Positions 19,984-33,100 of a stretch of 64,000 bases of DNA are shown here, in pieces; positions within the stretch are counted from its first letter, which is position 1, and each line of letters begins with the position of its first letter. A model generated the notes under the pieces. That model ran no database searches. It had not been told where the DNA came from and was given only the letters and a program-made list of their open reading frames with translations. The position numbers and the translations under genes were made by a program. Where the stretch lies: NCBI RefSeq assembly GCF_000143415.4, contig NW_003314272.1:530184-594183 (forward strand), in the 5' to 3' direction. Source of the DNA: Selaginella moellendorffii (lineage: Eukaryota; Plantae; Lycopodiophyta).

Positions 19984-22937
19984 TGATTCAATCACTCGAT
20001 CGCCCTGCCGCCGAATGCTGGCGAGAATCACAGATACCTTCTCGCGCAAACCCTCGCGCTTGCGTCGCGCGCTGCTGGAGGGGCGGAAGAATGCCGCGCT
20101 TCTTAAATCGCGCCCCTACCCCATTAACGGTCCTTGACCTATCTCGCCATCCAACGGCCCATCTCCTGGTTTAGCTGCCCTAATTTTAAAACTTAAGTGG
20201 GCGGGAGCTCTAAAAGCGGGAGAGATGCCGGCGTCGCTTTCGCGCGCGTGGGCGACGCGCGGCCTACCGCCGGCAACGAGAACTGTTTTTCTGGTGCTCA
20301 CGAGAACACTGTGGACGTCAAGTAGCCAACACTGTGCTTGCGAGCGATCGCGCGGTCAGTGAGTGTGAGGTTTTCTCTGAGCACTGCGCTGCAAATTGGT
20401 GTATCGATCTCGAATTCCAGTCTCTCTTGGCGCGTAATGGCAGCAACCAGCAGCAGCGATGGAATCGACCAGTGCGTGAGCATCTCCACAAGCATGAATT
20501 CTTGCAAGTGGGAGAGCAAGAGCAATTTATAGATCGATCGAGGCTTGTCTAGCTAGACATCGAAATGGACTGAAGAACCACATAAGAAAAGGAGAAAAAA
20601 CACTCTCCTGGCACTCCCCTGTCCTGTCCCTCCCTTGTCGACTATTACAATACTCTTTAATCGAGCTGGGCTGTGCCGTGTACTCGAATTCGCGACTTCT
20701 CCCTCTGTTCTTAAAAGTTTTTCCCCAGAGTGAATTTCTCTTGACGTGGGTGGCGCCCAAAACGCTCTACGTCGACTTGGGTCGTCACGATTTGGCATCA
20801 CCAATGGTGGGTCGAGCTCGAATTTATCATCTCAATCCGCGCTTGATCGCAATTTGGGCATCCTGGTCGCTTTTTCTCGTGCTTTCTTCGTGGACCCGGG
20901 CCCAAGAACTTTAACCCGTGTCAGGGAGGGCGAGTGTGTGTGAGTGAAGTGATTGCGATTTGCCCTTTGTTCGCTCGCGCGCCTGGCATTGCACATGGAG
21001 GAGCATCACAGCCGGTATAGATAGACAGCGGCGCAGCGCACCACTTCCAGCCAACAAGAGCAGCCAAATTTGTTGGGATCAAGCGCTCCCAAGCTTGATT
21101 GATTGCTGGAATGATCATCGATCGAATCCAGAGATTATTCCAACCCCTCCAATATTCTATTTCCTCTGTTAGAAGATAGCTTTGCAATGCCTTTTGCCGC
21201 TGGATAGCACTCCAATCCATGCGTTGCAAGCCAGTCCAAGCCAGGCCAGCAGCACTTGCGCTCATGATTTTACCTTCTTTTCTTTCGCTCGCCACCTTTT
21301 TTTCGTAGCTCGTACTGAAAGAATCAATCAAAGGTATCTAGATATGTATGCGTTGATTTTTCCGTGGGAGTTAGTTTAGCCTAATGGAGGATCAGGGTCA
21401 TGGCCACGATCATCTCCAAAATCTCGATCGTGGGATATCTGACCAGATCTTACGTTCCTTTCATTCCGTTTGATATGATCATCACCAAACACGGAGCAAT
21501 TACAGGAATCTCCTGAAATTGATCGATGGATTTGCGCGTGTGACGCGAGCGGGACGAGATCAATCGGGAAATACCTTAACTTTTTCGCTTTCACGATAGA
21601 CGACCGTTCGTTGCCGACAGTGCGAGAGCGCGTAAGTGCCCAGTGTTGAAATTTGCGAGTAGAATGTGTCTTTCATCCAGATTTTGACGAAAACAACACC
21701 CATGGGTCCCTTGTTGAGAAATTGCTTGACGAGCTTGACGATGACACGAATCCAAAAGGTGGCGGTGGTGTGGATCCGAGCAAGATTAACGATTCCAATG
21801 TTATAAACCTCTGGGAATCTAGAGATGTGTCCTCCTCGATCGCAGCGATGGATTCATCGATCTGGCTGGCTGGACCAGCAAGCACAGGGAGAGCTAACGC
21901 AACACGCACCCACATTCCCTGGACATGATATCTATACACCCACAGACAATTGTCTCTGGGTTTGATCCATAGTTTTCCACCCAGACTTTCAACTATGGTA
22001 AGAACCCTAACTTAGTTCCCGCCATCCACATGGAAAGCCTCGTTGGAATTTAGGTCTGGAGGACCATGGAGTTCTTAAGTTGGGACCCCACACAACATTA
22101 TAACGCTTGTGGTCTTGGGTCTACTCCCACGCTACTGTTTGATCGATCCTTCCATCCTCTCTCCCATAACGATAAAATAATATCGCATTGGAATCAATCG
22201 CTCGATCGATCAGCCAGTGGCCATGGTCGTCGGGTCGCGACGTGGTCCCAAAATTCAAATCAATAGCTTTTTCTTCTTTCATTCCTGACGATCAGTGTAG
22301 AACTCTACACTTGACAAGAGAGAAGCTTCTAAGAGCCCTAAATTTTAAACTGGTTTTATTAGTGCTTTAAATTTGAAAATGGGCGCGATAATCCAAACCC
22401 AAACCGGGTCAAGAAGGCGTGCCGTCGGTACACAGGCAGTGGCGGCCCAGCAGCCAACCGCGTCGTGCCATCTCTGCCGCTGGGCAATGATAGTGGGCCA
22501 CGTGGGGCCGCCCCATTAGTTCCAGCTTACGCCCTTCATGTGGCTCCAAAAACCCTCCGGAGTTTCCATCTTGAGAGAAGCGATAGAGCGCCGCAACAGA
22601 GTAACAGAAGCGGCAGAGGGATTGTTGGCCACGCAAGGGATTCTTGTTTGATCAGGGCGCGCGAGCGAGCTAGGGTATAGCGATTCGTGCCGCCGTCATC
22701 GATTTCCTGGTTCCGGAGCAGCGCAGTTGCATCGGATTCGCCTTTTCTTGCTTGGCCTGATCAAGCGCTTCCTTTTCCTCTTATCTTTCTTGGATTCCTG
22801 GATCTCCGTGAGCTCAGGAGCACGGATTTCCTTGGATTCTACTGCGTTCCTGGCTGGCATTTGCGATATTTCGGCTCTGTGGTGAAATTCTAGCGGTTCT
22901 GTGGGAGATTTTGTGGAGCATCGGTCGATCGAGAGCT

Positions 22938-24750
22938 ATGGCCGCTGCTGATTCGTCGTCTCGGCCTGTGCTCCGGCGAACGCAGCCAAAGGTGTTGCCA
23001 AAGACTCCTCCGGCGGCCCCCAAGCCGCTCAAGAGCGCTCCATCAATTGCCAAGAAACCATCCCCTCCTCCGGTGCCGGCGGCCGAGAAGATCAGCACTC
23101 CAAAGCTCCGTAGCGTCCAGATTCCAGTGCCGGGTCCAGCGGTTCTCAAGCCCGTGGCCGCGGATTTGAGCCCGGCGTCGGTTCTTCACGATCAGCCTAG
23201 CATTGTCGACGAGGAGGACGATTCTTCCAGCATTGCCAGTAGCAGCTGCCACAGCAGCCCGTGCTTCAGGAAAGATCCCTCTTCCTCGCTTCTAAAGGGT
23301 GGGAAGAGCGTGGCAAAGAAGGCGCCGCCGAGAAAAATTCCAGAGGCTCCCTCCACTCCCGCGATAGTGAAGAGGACGACGACCACGATGTTTCCTTCTC
23401 CTCAAGAAGTTCTCGCCCAGAGGAAGCTCAAGATTTCTCACTACGGTCGCAAGCAAGGCTCGCTCAAGGCTGTGAAAGTCGTTCTTCCGGAGGAATCGCT
23501 CAACTCTCCTGCCACCCAGAAGCGATGCGCTTGGATTTCGCCTCAATGTGGTGAGTTTTTTTCTCCAGTTTTTTTTTTTCTTTTCTTTCTTCAATGTTTG
23601 CTTCGTTTGTGGTGGGTTGTCAATCCGTCTGGTGAGCTGCTCGGATCTTTGCGTGATTGTTCTTTCTTTTGTTTCGCTTTGATTCTTCATCTAAAGCCTT
23701 TTTCAATGCAGATCCCGCGTACATCGCCTATCATGACGAAGAATGGGGAGTTCCTGTGCACGATGACAAGTAAGAGCTGGATCCTGTTGAGCTTTATTTT
23801 AGTATTGCTTGCTCGTTGCTGTTCCTTTGAGTTGTTGCTTTCACTGTTTCTATGAGTTGTTGCTGATCCATCTGGTTTATTTTTTCCTTTCCACTTGGTG
23901 GTGTTGATGCAGCTTGCTTTTCGAGCTCCTGGTGCTAGCCGGTGCGCAGTCGGAGATGGGGTGGTCTTTAATTCTCAGCAAGCGAGATTGTTACAGGTTG
24001 GTAGCCACTGCTTCCACTTCTTGCTCGTTTCTTTGCCTTCTCTTTTACTTTGATTCTACGTTGAATTTCTTGCACCTCGAGGGAATTGTGAACAGCGGGC
24101 ATTAACGTGTGGATGTTTTTTTTTTCTGTTTTCCCTTCTACTTCTTCCAGGCGTGCCTTCCAAGGCTTCGATCCAGCAGCAGTGGCAGCCTTTGACAAGA
24201 AGAAAGTTGCTGCGTTGAAGAGCGAGGTGGACATATATCAGCAGGAGGGAAAGCTCCAGGCAGTAATTGAGAATGCGGGACGTGTTCTGCAGGTAACAGT
24301 TCATTCTCTTACGTCCCGATATTTTCTCCTTTTTTGCTTCCCTTTTTCCGTGCCTCACTCACTGTTCGACTGTTCGATGGCCAGATTGTCCAAGAATGTG
24401 GATCACTAAGCAATTACTTGTGGGGCTTCTTGAATCACAAGCCCGTGACGCCCAACTTCCGGATGCCGGCCCAGGTCCCCATCAAAACGTCCAAGTCGGA
24501 GTTCATCAGCAGGGACCTTGTCCGGAGAGGCTTCTCGTGCGTCGGGCCGACCACCGTCTACTCGCTCATGCAAGCCGCGGGGATGACCAACGATCACACC
24601 ACGCAGTGCTTCAGGCACAAGGAGTGCGCTGCCGCTGCCGAGGCGACGACGATCAAGACTGGAGCTCCATCGCCGAGCTTCGCAATCGCTAGCGCTGACA
24701 ACCGAGATAACCTGACGAGCAGCAGGAACAGCAGCGTTTTTGTTCACTGA
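22938..24750 (+). CDS. DNA-3-methyladenine glycosylase I (TAG family), 5 exons
   Basis: KRCAWISPQC-DPAYIAYHDEEWGVPVHDD-LLFELLVLAGAQSEMGWSLILSKR-AFQGFDPAAVA...SRDLVRRGFSCVGPTTVYSLMQAAGMTNDHTTQCFR; GT-AG introns. Confidence 0.94.
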
Positions 24751-25087
24751 TTTCCAGGGACGGAGTGGGGGCGATGATCGATCAAAAGGCAAGCAAAAAT
24801 CGCCCATCGCCACAGCAAGAAGAGAAAGCTTTCGTCTCTCTCTTTTTACTTTCCTCCCATTTACTTATTTTATTGTACACTACAGAGCTTTTGTATTATA
24901 CGTGTTGTGTTTGCTCTAAAAGTCAAAGAAGTCAACTTATAAAAGTCTTCACGTGAAAGAAACTCTAAAAAAGTTAACAGTCAAAGAAAGTCAAAAACCA
25001 TTGTAGAACATTTTCCTGTAACCATTTTTTTCTCTCTCTCTTTTGTTTGTTTTTTTGCTTTTCTTTTTCATGGATGTTTTAGAATAA

Positions 25088-28000
25088 TCAAACCACCTGG
25101 AAAAGTTGGTCAAGGTGAGGCAAGGGAGAATTACGCCTTCTATCTTGTTGGTGGAGTTTGTGGTTTTCTTGCTGCTGATCTTGGTGTTGATCCTGTTGAG
25201 GCTTGGCCAAGACGAACAGCATGTCCCGCATAGCAGCCTGGTTTGGATTTGAGATCTTACTTAGGCCGAAGAAACGTTTATATAAAACGCTAGAACTTTA
25301 CCTGGACGCTGCTCATCGCAAAAGATCCAGCCCCGACATTCATGCCGGGCTTCAATGGATCGTCAATCCACAAAGACGTTGGCTGGAAGCTCGGCTCCAG
25401 CGCAAACATCCCTCCAGAGCTACCATTCGAGCCCTGGTTGGAAGACAAATCCAAAACTCAAATGAGAAGAGGAAGAAGAGAGTAAAGTGTGGAGTACCTT
25501 GAGTACGATCTTTGCTCTTGAGAAATCGAATTCCTGTCCAAAAATGTGAAGGAACCCAATCAAGAGCGTGCCAAGATTTGGTGCACCTGGAGCTTGGAGT
25601 GACACTAGCAAGTCATCCACAATCCTCCAAGCCCGGGAAATAAGTTCCTCCTCTTGACACGGAGGCCTCGCGGCGGACACACAACCGTCCTCGGACGCCG
25701 TGGTAGACGCGGACGAGTCCGTGAGATTTGTCTCGTCGTCCTCCGAGTCGGATACCTCGGACGATGCCACCGAATGATGATTCGCATTCGCAGGCTGTGC
25801 TGAAACACCGTTTTTATTGCCACCCCACGACACAGGCACTTGCTGCTAAAACGAACGCGAAGAAAAAAAAAACAGAAAGCGATGAAAGACATGGAGAGAA
25901 AAGCTGGTTCTCTCTTGCGAAACTGGAAAAGACGATTGCTTCTTACCTCGAGGTAGAAGACGAGCAAGAGCGTGAGCGAGAAGGAGCCCAGGCCACCAGT
26001 GTAGACGTTGTTCAATCCCTTGCAATGCAGGAAGGACTTCATGAGGAGCACCTGCAGCGTAACAGTGATGCTTCACCACAGAAGTCGAGCGGGGATATCA
26101 ACCTTCATACGAAAAGCGAGAAAGCTAGGCGCGTACCAGAGGAGCCAGCGCCGGGAGCTGGCGGAGTTTGTCGAGGACGTACTCTCTCGCGGCGGCTCCA
26201 TTGTGGACAATCGCCGGAGAGATGGCTCCCGGCCTCTTCTTGCTGCTGCTGCTGCTAGTCCTGGAGCCTCCCCGCGACTTGCCACCGAGAGTTACGTCGA
26301 TGGCCACCGGGGGAGCGTCGTCCGAAGCTACGTCCGGGAAAGGGTCGCAGCACAGCTTGATCACCGGCATGGAGGCCGTCTCGATCGTCATCAGCGACTT
26401 ACACCACCTGTGGTGCTCCTTGAACTCGGCCGCGAGGCTGCGGATGAGCGGGAGGAAACCTCTCGCACCGGAGCCCCCGTCTGCGAGAACCGGAGGCGCT
26501 GGCGTGTCCAAAACGACGACGTCCACGTCGCTATGTGGAAGGCACAGGCCGGTTGCGAACGAGCCAAACACCTGCAAGAACAAAGCTCAAGTTCCAGTCT
26601 TGTAAGAAAGAAACGAAAAAAAAGAGACCTCAACATCAGCTCCAGGCCAGAGCTGCTTCACTCCCCGTCGGACGCAATCCACCGCGGCCTCGGCCCGTGC
26701 TCGAGCCGCGGGTGACGGCCTCGCAGTGCGAGCAAACTCCAAGATCTCGGCGTGGAGCACTCCAAAGTTGGAGTCCACGTTTGCCGCCACCACCGGCGAA
26801 GGCAGCGAGAAAGCCGCCGGAGGGACGAGCATAACCGGGACGCTCCATGCAGCTCCAGGGATGTAAGTTTGATCCCTCTGGACGGGGCGATACCAAAAGC
26901 CATCCATCTCGCTCACCGGCGGCGGCGGCGGTGGCGAGTGGAAACGTATCGGTGTCAGGAGCGGAACGTGTGGCAAAGTCGTGAACGAGTGGAGCTGTAT
27001 GAGTGGCAGCTTCTTCCTGTTGTTGGTGTTGTTGGTGTTGCTACTGGCATCGTCCCTTTGCTTCCACGGCTTTGGAGCCTTTCCCTCCGGAGCTTCCGAC
27101 TTCGCGTCTGTGAAACCATTGCCAGTGATCTCGCTGTTGACGGCGGGATCCGGATCGTGTAGCCGGCCCATGATCGCTGCTGGAGAAGCAGCAGCAGCAG
27201 CATCCAGCTTCACTGCAGGAACCTTGGAGCTCCCGTTGCTTTTAACTGCAGCGCTCTCCCTTTCTCCAGGTTGCATCCCAGACTTGAGAGCTGCTACGTA
27301 CGAACCCCGGGAGGTGGAGCATTCCACTCCATCTTCTCCTCTATCACTTTCGCTTGCCAACACCCCCACCATTTTGTTGGTGCATGCAGCAACTTCGTCC
27401 CTTATCGCGTCACCACCTACATTATCCACTGCCAAATGCTCCCCGTTCGACGAAGATCTCCAGGCCCGGGAGAGATCTGCTCTACTCAAGCTTGTGCCCG
27501 TCGTGAAGCCATTCCGTTTTCGCGGAGAGCTCGCAGGGCCTGGCTTGGGCCAGTTTATCCGAGGCTTGCCGCGCACTGTCTCCCACTCGCTGCCATCGGA
27601 TGATTCAAGCCTCTGGTTGCTGAAAAGCTTGAGCAACGCTGCTGTCTGCAAAGTTTCCAGGGAATAAAAAAAGAAAGAAAAAATTTAATAAACAAATTAG
27701 TAGAAAGTTGCGAGTACCTCGGACATGGACAGCTCTAGCCTGAATTTCTTTGCTTCATAATGGAAGAGTACCGGCCGAAAGGCATCCTCTTCAAGCGGTG
27801 CCCGATTTTCTCGAATCCGCACGCGAACCTGGATGGATTCTCTCGGGTGTAAGTTGATGATCTACCACCCTTTGCAGTTAGATAGAACTACACGCAACTT
27901 ACCTGCGCCGGATATCTGGAAACATCAACTCCGGACCTCGCATCCTTGTTGATCCAAGCATCCGGCTCGATATTCAAGCCACCATCACTAGATGCCTACA

Positions 28001-28160
28001 AGTAAACGCAAAGTATTAAACCAAAACAAAAGAAGAAGATGGTTTTCTCGGGCTCACCTCAAATACTCCGTGCAAGCATCTGTTACTGTAGTTGTAGAGA
28101 AATAGTGGCAACCCTTTGCGTATGCCTTTGACGGAATCAATGAAACTCCTCGGCAGCCCT

Positions 28161-28199
<39 letters not shown>

Positions 28200-28479
28200 C
28201 AGCACGATCGATTCAACACGGATCTAAACAGAGCAATTTGAAACAGTCACTCCATCCAATTAAGAACAAGCAAAAAAGAAGCGAAGAGAAAATGGGAGAA
28301 AACGAAAAAAGACAAAAGATTTTACCGAAGAGGCACCGCTCAAAGTCTTCGGGCATGGTCTCATCGTTGCAAAAGAAGATGAATCCGCCCAGCGGCTGCT
28401 CGTGCGGGGACAATCGCGGGACCTCCTGCGGCACGCGCCGCTCCAAGAGAAGCCTGTGATGGTGCGCATTCACAACCAT
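25088..28479 (-). CDS. Multi-exon gene: N-terminal DCD domain fused to a TRF4/5-like non-canonical poly(A) polymerase (nucleotidyltransferase + PAP-associated domain)
   Basis: DCD: LGGFIFFCNDETMPEDFERCLFGLP...VKGIRKGLPLFLYNYSNRCLHGVFEASSDGGLNIEPDAW...SRYPAQVRVR. NTase: LHAEILEF...VEVFGSFATGLCLPHSDVDVVV...AIDVT...KSFLHCKGLNNVYTGGLGSFSL...NLGTLLIGFLHIFGQEFDF...IDDPLKPGMNVG. In-frame GT-AG junctions. Confidence 0.85.
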
Positions 28480-28932
28480 GTCTGTGTCGCGACCAAAACC
28501 ATCCAAAGAAGGGAGAAATCTCTGAAATCTCAACAAAATCCTTGCCACGGAGAGAAGACACCGATTCCAAGCGCTAGAAATCTCACTCCGCCCGCCCCGG
28601 CGGGCCTGATTAGCTCCGTCACCGGGGCGAAAGCTTCCAGAACAGCAAATTCGTGGAGAATCTCAGAGAATTCGGCTGCTGCGGGGGAGAGAGAATGAAA
28701 AGCCCTAATCTCTTCCACACAAACCCTAAAAAATTTAATGTCCCGTGTCAAACTATATCGCTGAAAGCCTTTTTTTTTTGGTCCAGTGGCCAAAGCGAAA
28801 GGAGAAAAATTCAACCAAAGAGTGTCCTCCTCCGTACGAAGCACTCCAAAAAAAAATCCGAAGTTCCTTTTTTTTTTTTCACGGCGAATGAATGATATAT
28901 ATATATTTTTGTCTCGAGAGCAGTCGCGTCCT

Positions 28933-30034
28933 CTAAAAACCTCCAAAAATCGCGAGGAATGCCTCCGCGTTGGTCAGGTCGTCGAGAATCACGGCATTCG
29001 TGCCGCTGGCTTGACGCAATTCACTGCCGGTGAAAATCCCGGTGCACACGGCGACGGGAAGAGCGCCTCCGAGCTCGGCCGCAGCGACGTCGTTGGGCTG
29101 TAGAAAAAAGTTTTTTTTCTCTCGTGAGCAAAGATGGAAAGAACAAGAAAAAACGTGTTTTTTTTTTCTCTTACCGTGTCGCCAACGTGAGCGTGCAGAC
29201 GGATGGTCTTGTCGAAGAGCTGGAGAGCTTTTTGGCGAGAGAGCTTGACGAGCTCGCCGCGGTCTTCATGGTCACTGCCAAATCTTCGCAAGACAAGAAG
29301 AGAGTTTTCTCTTCGTCTTGATGGGAAAGAACGACCGAATCGAAGAACTTACCCTCCGAAATGGGGGACGCTGAAGAACTCCTCGATCCCCAAGCTGACC
29401 ATCTTCATCCAAGCAATGCCCTCGAGGTTTCCAGTCACCTAGTTGCCAAAAAAGTGATCCAAAGTCTGAGCACGACCGGAAAGAGAGGAAGAAGACGATG
29501 GGATTTCTTACCAGGCCAATTAAGAAGCTTTCATCCTTGGAGAGCGTCTGGAGGAGATGATAAACTCCTGGAAGAAGTTCCAATCCATCTCCAATCTCCG
29601 ACGCGTGATCGTGTGCGTAGCCAACCATGCTGGCTTTCAGCTCTGGAAGCTTGGCCGTGGACTCCTGTAACAAGTGAGATTGCCAAATCACAGTATTTTT
29701 TTGTTCTTTCGATCGATCCATACAAACCTGTCTTGGAACCCCGTAATGCTCCAGAGTGCTCACGAGAATGATCGGATCGGTGCTACCATGGTGCTACATC
29801 GGGTATAGAGATCATAGAAACTTCATTCGTACACCCAGATCTAACACTTACCTTGACAACATCAATGGTAGCATCGCGCACGCCAAATATTTCCTCCATG
29901 GCGTGCGAGAAGGCGCGCTTGTGGAGGCGATTCGCTAGCGGCCCGACACTGCGCATCAGAGTGCCATCCACATCGAATGTGACGAGGATCTTGCCGCCAT
30001 CGCCATCGCCATCGCCATCGCCATTGCCCGCCAT
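28933..30034 (-). CDS. HAD-superfamily hydrolase (phosphatase-like), ~6 exons
   Basis: Motif I FDVDGTL, motif II VTGN, FGSD, motif IV VGDTPNDV; GT-AG introns. Confidence 0.88.
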
Positions 30035-30139: not shown

Positions 30140-33100
30140 CTACTTCAACTCATAGTATCTGTTGGTCTTGGGATCATAGTAACAATCCAGCGTCGGATCA
30201 TAGAGCAAATCGAGGTCGTCTTCGGATGTTCCTTCGAGATCTGGAGGAGCGAAAGAAGCAAAGTTTGTCGCCAAGAACTTGAATGAATCATATCAAATAC
30301 CATCAGCCGCGGCTGGACGTCCGCAAAGCTCCTCTAACTGTGCCGATCTCGACTTCCTGCGAGAGGAGCTCGGGCCGGGAGAGATCTTCCGAGCACTGTT
30401 TGGACCGTTGGCGCCGTTTGGACCGGTGGCGCTTCCCATGCTGGAGTCAAAAATAAAAATGTCGCAAGTGCAAAAGAGAAAAAAGAGAAAAAAGAGAACT
30501 TGGTTAGTGACAAAAAGTGATAGTTACCTGTCTAGCTTGAGGACCGGCTTTGCGACCATATGGGGCTCAAACACCGTCTGCTCGCCAGAATCCTCAAACT
30601 CTTCCTCGTCATGCTCATCGTATGCATCGTGCGAATCGTGCTCGTTTAGATTACTGTGGTCCTGTACAAGCAAAAGAATCTCACAAGTGGAGCTGGGGAA
30701 AACAAAAAGAAGAAGAAGAAAAAAACACATTACCTGTTCGTGAACAACAAACAAATCATCGGCGCTATCAAACGGAGTGATAGCCACAGTGGTTTCTTCT
30801 GGCAAGAAGAAAGAAGAAAGAGTTAAAAACCAAACATTCAAGTTTCTAAAGGTGGACCGTCCAAGTTCTAGAGGTGGAACTCCCAAGTTCTAGAGGGAAC
30901 TTCCAAGTTATAGAGAAGAACTTCCAGTTCTAGAGATGGAACTTACGTACCTTTGGCGATGGCATCGCTGCTGGGAGCCTTTCCCCCGCTCAACCGCGTC
31001 TTCTTGACGAGGTCCTCGAGATCATTCAGCGCGCTGGGGCTGCCACGGCCCGAGCTCCCCGAGCACCAGCTCTCATCGTCCGACGCCGACGCCGAGTTGT
31101 TCCCTTCCCGGAGCATGAAGTCCTTCTCCAGCTCAAATTGGTAGAACTTGAGCCCCTCGGCGTCCCTGCTCGCGATCGTCTTGGACGGCTTTTGCTCGGC
31201 TTGCGACGAGGACGAGTTCGCCGGCTGTGGAGCCTGTGCCAGGTCCGGAGCCGCGGTATCCTCCGAGGCCTCCTTCTCCTTGTCCTCGCCATCCTCGGAC
31301 ATGGACGAGAAGATCTCCGTGTCGTCCTGTGCGTAGTCTCCCAGCTTCTCAAACAAGGTGTGCACCTTGAAGTTCATGTCGTCGGAGCCGCGAGCGCTGG
31401 CGGATCTCTCCCATCCGCACGGGGTGATGGGGGGAGAGTCCTCGTACCTAGCCTGCTGCCTGAAATCCTTGGCTCTCACCAGCTCGGCCTCCTTCCGCCC
31501 GTGCTTGCCGTTTGCGATGTATGGTATCTCGGCTCGCTTCCACGCCTGTTCTTCCTTCTTCTTTCCCGGCTTTGCGCCACCGCCACCTTTCATAAGCTCG
31601 ACAGCATTCTCGGCCTTCTTCTCGACTCTGGCGGCTTCGTTGCTGGCTACCAGCGTTGCTGCAGTGTTGTTCTCGCCTTTCTTGGTCGTGGTTGTGCTGG
31701 GAGTTTGGATGTCTGGAGTGGAGGACCTCGCAAGCATGGGAAACCTCCGGTCGAGCTTCTCCGGGGCCGTCCTGTTGGTCGTCGTGTCCATGGAGGTGTC
31801 CGGTGGGAGCGGGAGCTTTGGCTGCTTCTCCCTGACGTGCCTTTCTTCGATGGTGGCCTGAGTATTTTGCTGCGCGGTGGAGCAGACGAGAGGCATCCTG
31901 GAGCCAAACGCGACGTGCACCTGTCTCGGATACTCCATCCTGTTCAATGTCAACTTTCTGGCGCTCAGGACAGACTCCGGACCACCTCGAGCTGCATCGA
32001 TCGTGAAGTCAGTTTCAAGCAAGAGAGAACTAGAACAAGCAAACAAAGGCAAGAAGAAGAAGAAGAAGAAGAAGGAGTGTCAAACTTGCCATCAATGGAA
32101 GGAATCTCAATGCCAAGAGCAGACTGTAACTTCGCAATATCAATCACTTGCGAACAGTTCTCCACCCCTGACGCAAATGTATGTTCTTGCGGGAGCGGTT
32201 CCTCGATGCCAAGCGCATTCTCGCCTCCAGTCTCTGCTAGCCGGGTCCTCAGCGTGAATATCTTGCGGAGCTTACAGACGGGTCCTAGGACAATAACTTC
32301 AACGGACCTGTGGATCAAGAAACCAAAACCAAAATGAAACGAGTGTTAAAAACACATTTCCTGGACCTTTAAACTATTGCACGGAGGCAACTATTCTCAC
32401 CGAAAACTTATTACCCGGAAACAATTGTAGAAAAGGTCTGGGACATGCAGTGCCAAGCTGAGCCAAATGTTCCGCATTACCTGTCGATCACAGCCTTGAT
32501 CCTTTGATTATGCTTGGGAGATTTCCAGAGCATCTTGCTTACCATTGAGATTGGAATCTGGCAGTGAAGAGGCGTGATCTTGAGCTCGCTGAAAGAGGTG
32601 GAAAAGTACATCTTTCGCCGAGTATTCGTGGTGTCACTCACCCTGCATCTCTACTGATTGTTACTACAGCAACGAGAAAGCACTAAAAGAAAAATGAAAT
32701 CGCAAAGGATAGATCATACCTTAGCTCGAAGTTGAAATGCTGTCCGGAGGGAATAAAGAGCTGTAGCACCAGATATGGATGAATCAACTGGAGGCCTGAC
32801 TCAATCACAGTGAGAAAAAAAGAAGGTAAGCTCAACTCATAAGCTTTGCAAAACAAGAAAAAAAAACAACAAAAACAAAAGAGTATCACACCTGTTTTGA
32901 TCTCGTCCTTCGGTAGCTGGATCTTGGACGAATGCCCTCCAGTACAGGAATACACATAGCCTTTCACCGATTTGTCATAAACCTGCGAAGAAGAAAAAGA
33001 AGAAAAAAGAGATAAAAATCCCATCTTTCGTGCTGGAAAATCAATGGGAGTGTACCTTCTGGATACCTTTCCCGCAGAGCTTGCAATTCACCAAGGGATT

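Follow-up and report, generated by a model that had tools for sequence, protein, structure and literature searches.

We found that a single gene of Selaginella moellendorffii encodes, in one polypeptide, an N-terminal DCD domain and a nucleotidyltransferase (NTase) that its palm, aspartates and central domain assign to the Cid1/Trf4 class, and that this fusion is a streptophyte-wide family rather than a Selaginella oddity. The gene lies on the minus strand at positions 28479–25088 of the 64,000-nucleotide stretch of contig NW_003314272.1 that we analyzed, hereafter the window. The enzyme class is a known one; the domain architecture is new, real, expressed and long-conserved, and it is apparently undescribed. 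An earlier note on this DNA had allowed that the architecture might already be characterized; we found no description of a DCD–NTase fusion in the open-access literature. The available text of PMC7641849 and three supplements do not contain the term ‘nucleotidyl’, and its Figure 13, on plant DCD architectures, could show the fusion. The available part of PMC1182354 gives four angiosperm DCD architectures, none with an NTase; the text of a 2026 plant NTP review (PMC13030794) mentions neither DCD nor Selaginella, Marchantia or Physcomitrium; and the available parts of PMC12547628 and PMC9569735 hold nothing on such a fusion. In automatic annotation, the architecture is visible under the label ‘DCD domain-containing protein’.

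The coding span (25088–28479, minus strand; RefSeq LOC9650791) consists of 10 exons. Exon 1 (28326–28479) carries the start codon, the N-terminal tail and the first DCD strand and helix up to LF-G, and is followed by a phase-1 intron within the DCD; exons 2 (28058–28158), 3 (27903–27995, containing W99) and 4 (27718–27828, containing F145) continue the domain. Removal of intron 4 (27646–27717, 72 nt, phase 0) joins the DCD to exon 5 (26629–27645), which encodes the end of the DCD, a predicted disordered linker of ~280 amino acids (aa) and the first NTase helices. The NTase palm is encoded by exon 6 (26137–26571), with G495–S496, D507 (codon 26529–26527), D509 (26523–26521), D584 (26298–26296) and H615 (26205–26203), followed by central-domain helices with a GGLGS motif in exon 7 (25947–26051), an acidic Ser-rich insert and the start of the PAP_assoc region in exon 8 (25498–25845), a Trf4-like nucleotide-recognition loop (aa 812–826, from 25364) in exon 9 (25302–25433), and the final helices and stop codon in exon 10 (25088–25237). 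All nine introns are GT..AG and 57–167 nt long. Tandem acceptors at exon 8 (25845 and 25842) yield products of 881 and 880 aa, letter-identical to XP_024529557.1 and XP_024529559.1 (LOC9650791 isoforms X1 and X2), which RefSeq labels ‘uncharacterized’. Transcript contigs also cover a 5′ untranslated region at 28480–28730, with contig ends at 28717–28730.

Spliced joints of introns 2–9 were present in transcript contigs of four out of four runs, each from a different study, so all four runs derive from spliced RNA; no run listed for this DNA is on record as RNA. These include the phase-0 joint LSMSE|TAALL of intron 4, which the earlier note had placed between the DCD exons and the linker exon; its claim that no stop separates DCD and NTase was likewise borne out, with exact coordinates and a joined frame open for 881 aa. 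The joint of intron 1 is absent from the joint list owing to a CT repeat at this place. Exons 1 and 5 occur in one contig (X6 record 16) with a gap of 304 nt, compared with 305 nt for exons 2–4, and a 1863-nt contig (X13 record 6) holds exons 5 and 6 plus 306 letters on the DCD side that fit exons 2–4 by length; for intron 1 and for the exon 2–4 part of the latter contig, the support consists of lengths and RefSeq. An older annotation, EFJ30070.1, is a 159-aa DCD-only model that runs into intron 4, and as the main form it is contradicted by the contigs splicing that intron. In RefSeq isoform X3 (711 aa), splicing to an acceptor at 26071 shifts the frame; this joint was not found among those from the four transcript runs. 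Separate DCD and NTase transcripts, a possibility raised at the outset, are at odds with contigs spanning intron 4 in every run. These results show that DCD and NTase are made as one spliced transcript and one protein.

Pfam placed the DCD at aa 31–161 (27622–28389 across exons 1–5; E 3e-41, 140 bits over positions 1–126 of the PF10539 profile), and the DCD motifs FGLP, LFL, PAQV and PLxE are present in the Selaginella protein. The ~280-aa linker leads to the NTase at about aa 444–845, in which Pfam recognized MTPAP-like_central (aa 450–568, E 3e-13) and NTP_transf_2 (aa 478–513, E 6e-9), with PAP_assoc (aa 762–816) just below its cut-off (22.2 versus 22.6 bits). Structural analysis relied on the AlphaFold model available for P0001, an 882-aa protein encoded by the near-identical locus LOC9629856, which is probably the other haplotype of LOC9650791. 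Both domains were modelled confidently (DCD mostly pLDDT 80–96), and the linker, mostly at pLDDT <50, is predicted to be disordered. Linker length ranges from 287 to 843 aa over 59 family members. We assessed conservation in 43 non-redundant members drawn from 72 scoring >230 bits. Three short linker motifs (aa 173, 268 and 315) occur in 12, 17 and 33 of these members, and 37 of the 43 carry the DCD; four of the six without it retain linker motifs and appear 5′-truncated.

The catalytic residues of the NTase proved intact, as had been read from the sequence, and form a GS-x10-DVD motif plus a third aspartate: G495, S496, D507 and D509 are kept in 43/43 members and D584 in 42/43, with one gap. 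The best solved relative by profile is Trf4 (3nyb, E 5e-37), followed by Cid1 (E 6e-11). Trf4 was also ranked first by Foldseek, and VIA-align gave it a Z of 24.6 over 294 residues, with TUT1 and TUT7 at 23.5, tied within about 1. The alignment to Trf4 runs across three stretches, including the central/PAP-associated domain and the nucleotide-recognition loop. Judged by palm, aspartates and central domain, the NTase belongs to the Cid1/Trf4 class of non-canonical terminal nucleotidyltransferases.

A search for the DCD–NTase combination across streptophytes, which the earlier note had proposed, yielded a family extending from zygnematophyte algae to conifers. An exon-derived NTase query returned 34 proteins from 3847 candidates, 28 of them with a DCD, including single ORFs on 3.7–5.3-kb contigs and transcriptome ORFs; a DCD-region query returned 46 proteins from 198 candidates, 30 of them with an NTase. 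Named members comprise the zygnematophytes Closterium and Spirogloea, the bryophytes Riccia, Marchantia, Calypogeia, Ceratodon, Physcomitrium and Sphagnum, and the vascular plants Diphasiastrum, Ceratopteris (at least five loci), Adiantum, Pteridium, Taxus and Cryptomeria, so that the fusion is kept in zygnematophyte algae, liverworts, mosses, lycophytes, ferns and conifers. Models from Klebsormidium and Mesotaenium fall in the NTase clade and contain no DCD, probably through truncation. These two models, together with the older 159-aa DCD-only model, are what could be cited in favor of two adjacent genes merged by annotation. Such a merger is highly improbable in view of the splicing of intron 4 in 4/4 runs, the DCD in 28/34 NTase-exon matches, among them single ORFs, and the tracking of DCD and NTase distances described below.

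The fusion had been noted as unfamiliar from angiosperms, and no member named as an angiosperm emerged from three protein searches or from one profile scan. The DCD-region query gave 15 angiosperm-named matches, all of them lacking an NTase. A Cryptomeria NTase query over lengths 463–1476, a search that missed angiosperm TRL and MEE44 too, returned 55 proteins from 5193 candidates (47 at ≥160 bits) with no angiosperm-named match. When 1.84 billion representatives were scanned with a profile, 25 of the best 150 matches were checked by name, and the sole angiosperm was a Urochloa TRL-type protein; many matches carried no name, most of those placed being from ferns, mosses and algae, and P0239 and P0240 were unplaced. 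Loss of the DCD–NTase enzyme in angiosperms is thus well supported, not proven.

We then placed the NTase among its relatives in an unrooted tree of 42 rows picked by similarity to the query profile, 11 of 53 having been omitted for length or redundancy. The streptophyte DCD–NTases formed a clade (100/99) separate from a TRL/Trf4-type clade (98/98), and an AU test rejected a union of the streptophyte clade with plant-type TRL (p = 0.003). The description of the enzyme as TRF4-like therefore stands for the Trf4 class and fails for orthology with TRL/Trf4; given this separation, the nucleolar decay role of TRL is not transferable. A signature H-x-G follows the third aspartate in 14/15 streptophyte rows, in each of the four DCD-linked rows from outside streptophytes (P0094, P0103, P0098 and P0126) and in MEE44-like rows, and is missing in 11/12 TRL/Trf4-type rows. 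P0175, which we take to be a plant-type MEE44-like protein, fell outside the streptophyte clade in the best tree, although sisterhood was not rejected (p = 0.15) among rows containing no named MEE44 sequence. The N-terminal 400 aa of P0095, presumably a MEE44-type region, had 14 matches among the collected proteins, none of them a DCD fusion. In addition to TRL and MEE44, the family seems to form a third Trf4-like lineage in plants; MEE44 is the other, unstudied plant Trf4 homolog according to the available part of PMC8894942.

The nucleotide-recognition site bears on which tail the enzyme would make. A near-invariant His615 and Arg621, preceded by a 20–40-aa insertion, lie beside the NTP site, unlike in Trf4 and TRL. 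Uridylyltransferases (Cid1, URT1, HESO1 and TUT4/7) have a His in the nucleotide-recognition loop just before the Asn. No such His was among the six commonest states at this position in the 43 members (V 19, A 12, gap 6, I 2, S 1, Y 1), and Taxus has F. TENT4 adds mixed tails that protect or mature RNA, and a comparable activity, in which the DCD selects RNAs and the tail is mixed or of G, C or U rather than decay-promoting oligo(A), would be in keeping with the clade-specific His615, Arg621 and insertion, with the ranking of CutA, Cid1 and TUT7 close after Trf4 by fold, and with the presence of C- and U-adding members among plant NTPs (PMC13030794). However, the recognition loop aligns directly with that of Trf4 and resembles TRL-type loops, and we consider a protecting or maturing tail of this kind unlikely.

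Beyond streptophytes, three divergent DCD–NTase fusions were found. P0094, labelled Durusdinium, lies on a 10.9-kb contig and has a C-terminal RRM; P0103 belongs to a cluster that includes an MMETSP transcript; and P0098, from a marine eukaryote, has 27 members from metagenomes and sequencing runs and is one ORF on a gene-dense contig of 57% GC. Two of the three catalytic aspartates of P0098 are lost, and its NTase clusters in the ESM Atlas are below 0.9. A Mucochytrium protein (P0126), which contains an RRM and matches the DCD weakly (23 bits), groups with P0094 and P0103 at 100/100, and because of this grouping P0094 and P0103 are probably labyrinthulomycete. All DCD–NTase fusions appeared as one group at 52/87 (99/200 bootstrap trees, with long branches meeting); a single origin is at this support neither shown nor rejected. 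An NTase that serves only as a scaffold, or one whose substrate is DNA, a protein or, in a signalling synthase, free nucleotides, could be imagined from the pol-beta fold common to CD-NTases, cGAS-like receptors and OAS (Z 12–19), from prokaryotic EVE/DCD domains, which act on DNA, and from the aspartates lost in P0098. We hold both variants to be very unlikely: Trf4 and other RNA-tailing enzymes rank far higher by sequence and fold, and the streptophyte members keep all catalytic residues.

Comparison of the modelled DCD with solved structures agreed with the EVE/PUA-like fold proposed in the earlier note, with matches to the EVE proteins PH1033 (1wmm; Z 14.0, rmsd 2.5, 125 aligned) and VcaM4I (6yex; Z 11.8, rmsd 3.0, 126 aligned). 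The DCD profile searched against the sequences of solved structures found no relative and 1 chance match, an ESM Atlas search with the domain returned DCD clusters only, and a prediction of the DCD alone without an alignment reached pLDDT 36.5 and was kept out of the structure searches. According to the available part of PMC7897488, the EVE pocket of VcaM4I (P24, W82 and Y130) holds flipped 5mC/5hmC, and its DNA-contacting face is basic. By their position in the aligned ranges, L53–P54, W99 and F145 could correspond to these three residues. Of 33 fused DCDs, 29 retain F51, 27 retain W99, which conifer members lack, and 30 retain F145; unfused plant DCDs keep these aromatics as well, so the residues may be structural. 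The domain has 18 K+R versus 19 D+E and hence no net positive charge. Among 17 members, conservation of the DCD is on a par with that of the palm (mean identity 57% versus 54%), and DCD and NTase distances correlate (Spearman 0.70), which shows co-inheritance, not function.

In a DCD tree, the fused DCDs and the C-terminal DCDs of NRP/B2 type formed one clade under LG+G4 (99/98) and under a mixture model (100/98; 23 of 56 rows left out). Nesting of NRP within the fused DCDs, obtained under LG+G4 (92/92), was not reproduced by the mixture model, in which the fused DCDs formed their own weak clade (42/81). The fused DCDs of Marchantia and Riccia are 71% identical to an NRP-type DCD. The isolated NRP DCD binds PevD1 (0.19 µM) and CRY2 (4.34 µM) as purified proteins, and the measured plant DCD ligands we found in the literature are proteins only (PMC13570309, available part); in the Arabidopsis RNA-interactome literature, we found no DCD proteins. 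The shared clade, the 71% identity, the binding of CRY2 and PevD1 and a net charge near zero would fit an enzyme that tails RNA and whose DCD is an NRP-like protein adaptor, with stress- or light-signalling partners or the linker motifs picking the RNA. We regard this as possible, if doubtful, since protein binding is compatible with RNA binding and since the EVE-like fold, the conserved aromatics and DCD–RNA-processing fusions elsewhere suggest nucleic acids; in other eukaryotes, the fusion partners of DCDs include YTH, KH and zinc fingers, as given in the available part of PMC7641849.

The reading that we favor, tentatively and with somewhat less than even confidence, is that the DCD, joined to a Trf4-class NTase through a linker predicted to be disordered, binds RNA for target choice, and that the NTase tails this RNA with A-rich sequence. 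The tails that the enzyme would add to RNA 3′ ends would be short, untemplated and probably A-rich. We infer RNA tailing with a preference for ATP from the closeness to Trf4 and the Trf4-like nucleotide-recognition loop. Trf4 has no RNA-binding domain and is inactive alone, requiring Air1/2 (PMC1079787, available part), and in plants there is no clear homolog of Air, nor has TRAMP been demonstrated (PMC8894942, available part). By analogy, a PUA-like domain fused in cis would be the simplest substitute for Air, and the DCD would take over Air1/2-type RNA binding, possibly via an EVE-type pocket for a flipped base. Against an RNA-selecting DCD stand its grouping with protein-binding NRP/B2 DCDs and its non-basic character, as opposed to the basic face of VcaM4I; in its favor, the distant fusion P0094 also has an RRM. 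The last and weakest step is that the tail would pass the RNA to 3′–5′ exosome decay, as for TRL and TRAMP.

Plant RNA-tailing biology rests on ten Arabidopsis enzymes. The DCD–NTases add an extra Trf4-like lineage of non-flowering land plants, apparently missing from the flowering-plant models used by the field; Physcomitrium patens has a named orthologue, and Marchantia paleacea a close one. The fusion bears on a question raised in the available part of PMC7641849, namely whether plant DCDs bind modified DNA, RNA or neither, and a DCD fused to an RNA-end enzyme makes the plant DCD ligand testable. Kinship with NRP would extend the answer to a well-studied crop stress and cell-death pathway. 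A bolder reading, to us a shade less probable even than a protective tail, would see an ancient single-chain reader-writer of streptophytes and some protists that tails modified-base RNA, of which angiosperms kept only the reader as NRP/B2; if it were true, the NRP/B2 cell-death proteins would be RNA-mark readers.

Among known systems, the DCD–NTases resemble yeast Trf4/Trf5 (TRAMP), human TENT4A/B and Arabidopsis TRL/NTP10 (At5g53770) in the pol-beta palm with three aspartates, the GGLGS central motif and the recognition loop, and differ from Trf4, TENT4 and TRL in the N-terminal DCD, the long linker and the H-x-G plus Arg signature; unlike Trf4 in TRAMP, they have no known Air or Mtr4 partner. 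With Arabidopsis MEE44/NTP9 (At4g00060) and MEE44-like protist enzymes they share the H-x-G after the third aspartate, whereas MEE44-like proteins have a different large N-terminal region without a DCD. Their DCD falls in one clade with those of NRP/B2/GDA1 (DCD subgroup I of Tenhaken 2005), in which, by contrast, the DCD is C-terminal, behind a low-complexity region, and without an enzyme domain. Finally, EVE/YTH/DCD fusions (VcaM4I EVE–HNH, heterokont Znf–YTH–DCD–KH, DCD–CAPAM and eTudor–DCD) likewise join a PUA-like module to a nucleic-acid enzyme or RNA-processing domain; unlike in these reader fusions, the partner in the DCD–NTases is a terminal nucleotidyltransferase.

Within the minus-strand DCD-NTase gene of Selaginella moellendorffii, two alternative acceptors were distinguished. 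A tandem acceptor at intron 7 (window 25843-25845, minus strand) separates forms of 880 and 881 aa, and transcript contigs contained the 880-aa form in 4/4 runs. The other, a RefSeq-predicted acceptor inside intron 6 (window 26071, minus strand), shifts the reading frame and cuts the NTase.

The gene is closely flanked on both sides. Directly downstream and convergent with it lies a methyladenine glycosylase gene (window 22854-25036, plus strand; Pfam Adenine_glyco, E 1e-27 at 24382-24747). When transcript contigs were placed on the window, those from runs X1 and X5 were found to hold spliced introns of both the glycosylase and the DCD-NTase genes, which suggests that the 3′ ends of the two genes overlap. 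Upstream, a spliced HAD-like hydrolase gene on the minus strand (window 28897-30034), with a weak Hydrolase_like match and five joints recovered in 4/4 runs, ends ~170 nt from the DCD-NTase transcript start. Beyond it, the last exon of a further gene occupies 30143-30238 on the same strand, with a weak OCRE match (22.8 bits vs a cut-off of 24.7).

A second DCD gene was sought in the 64,000-nt Selaginella window, and none was found. In the liverwort Riccia sorocarpa, the locus tags of the DCD-NTase gene (R1sor_024139, P0002) and of an NRP-type DCD gene (R1sor_024145, P0079) are six apart and the two contigs are equally long, which hints that the pair arose via local duplication. The family has also expanded in ferns, as shown by Ceratopteris richardii, which carries at least five loci (P0014, P0032, P0046, P0061 and P0063) among whose proteins the DCD N-terminal motif has drifted.

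Outside streptophytes, P0094, labelled as from the dinoflagellate Durusdinium trenchii, grouped with the labyrinthulomycete Mucochytrium at 100/100 in the tree; its gene sits on a 10.9-kb contig, and the protein may be a contaminant. A further DCD fused to an NTase, P0098, is encoded in gene-dense eukaryotic DNA (L002:8001-10862). It keeps a W-x-x-V-x-K-like motif immediately after the DCD, alignment revealed two catalytic aspartates replaced by N and H, and its sequence reads as that of a likely pseudoenzyme.

Finally, filasterean and amoebozoan Trf4-like proteins and a plant-type MEE44-like protein have a large N-terminal region in common (P0095, P0163, P0104, P0121, P0177 and P0175), and this shared region suggests that the MEE44-like subfamily is ancient in eukaryotes.
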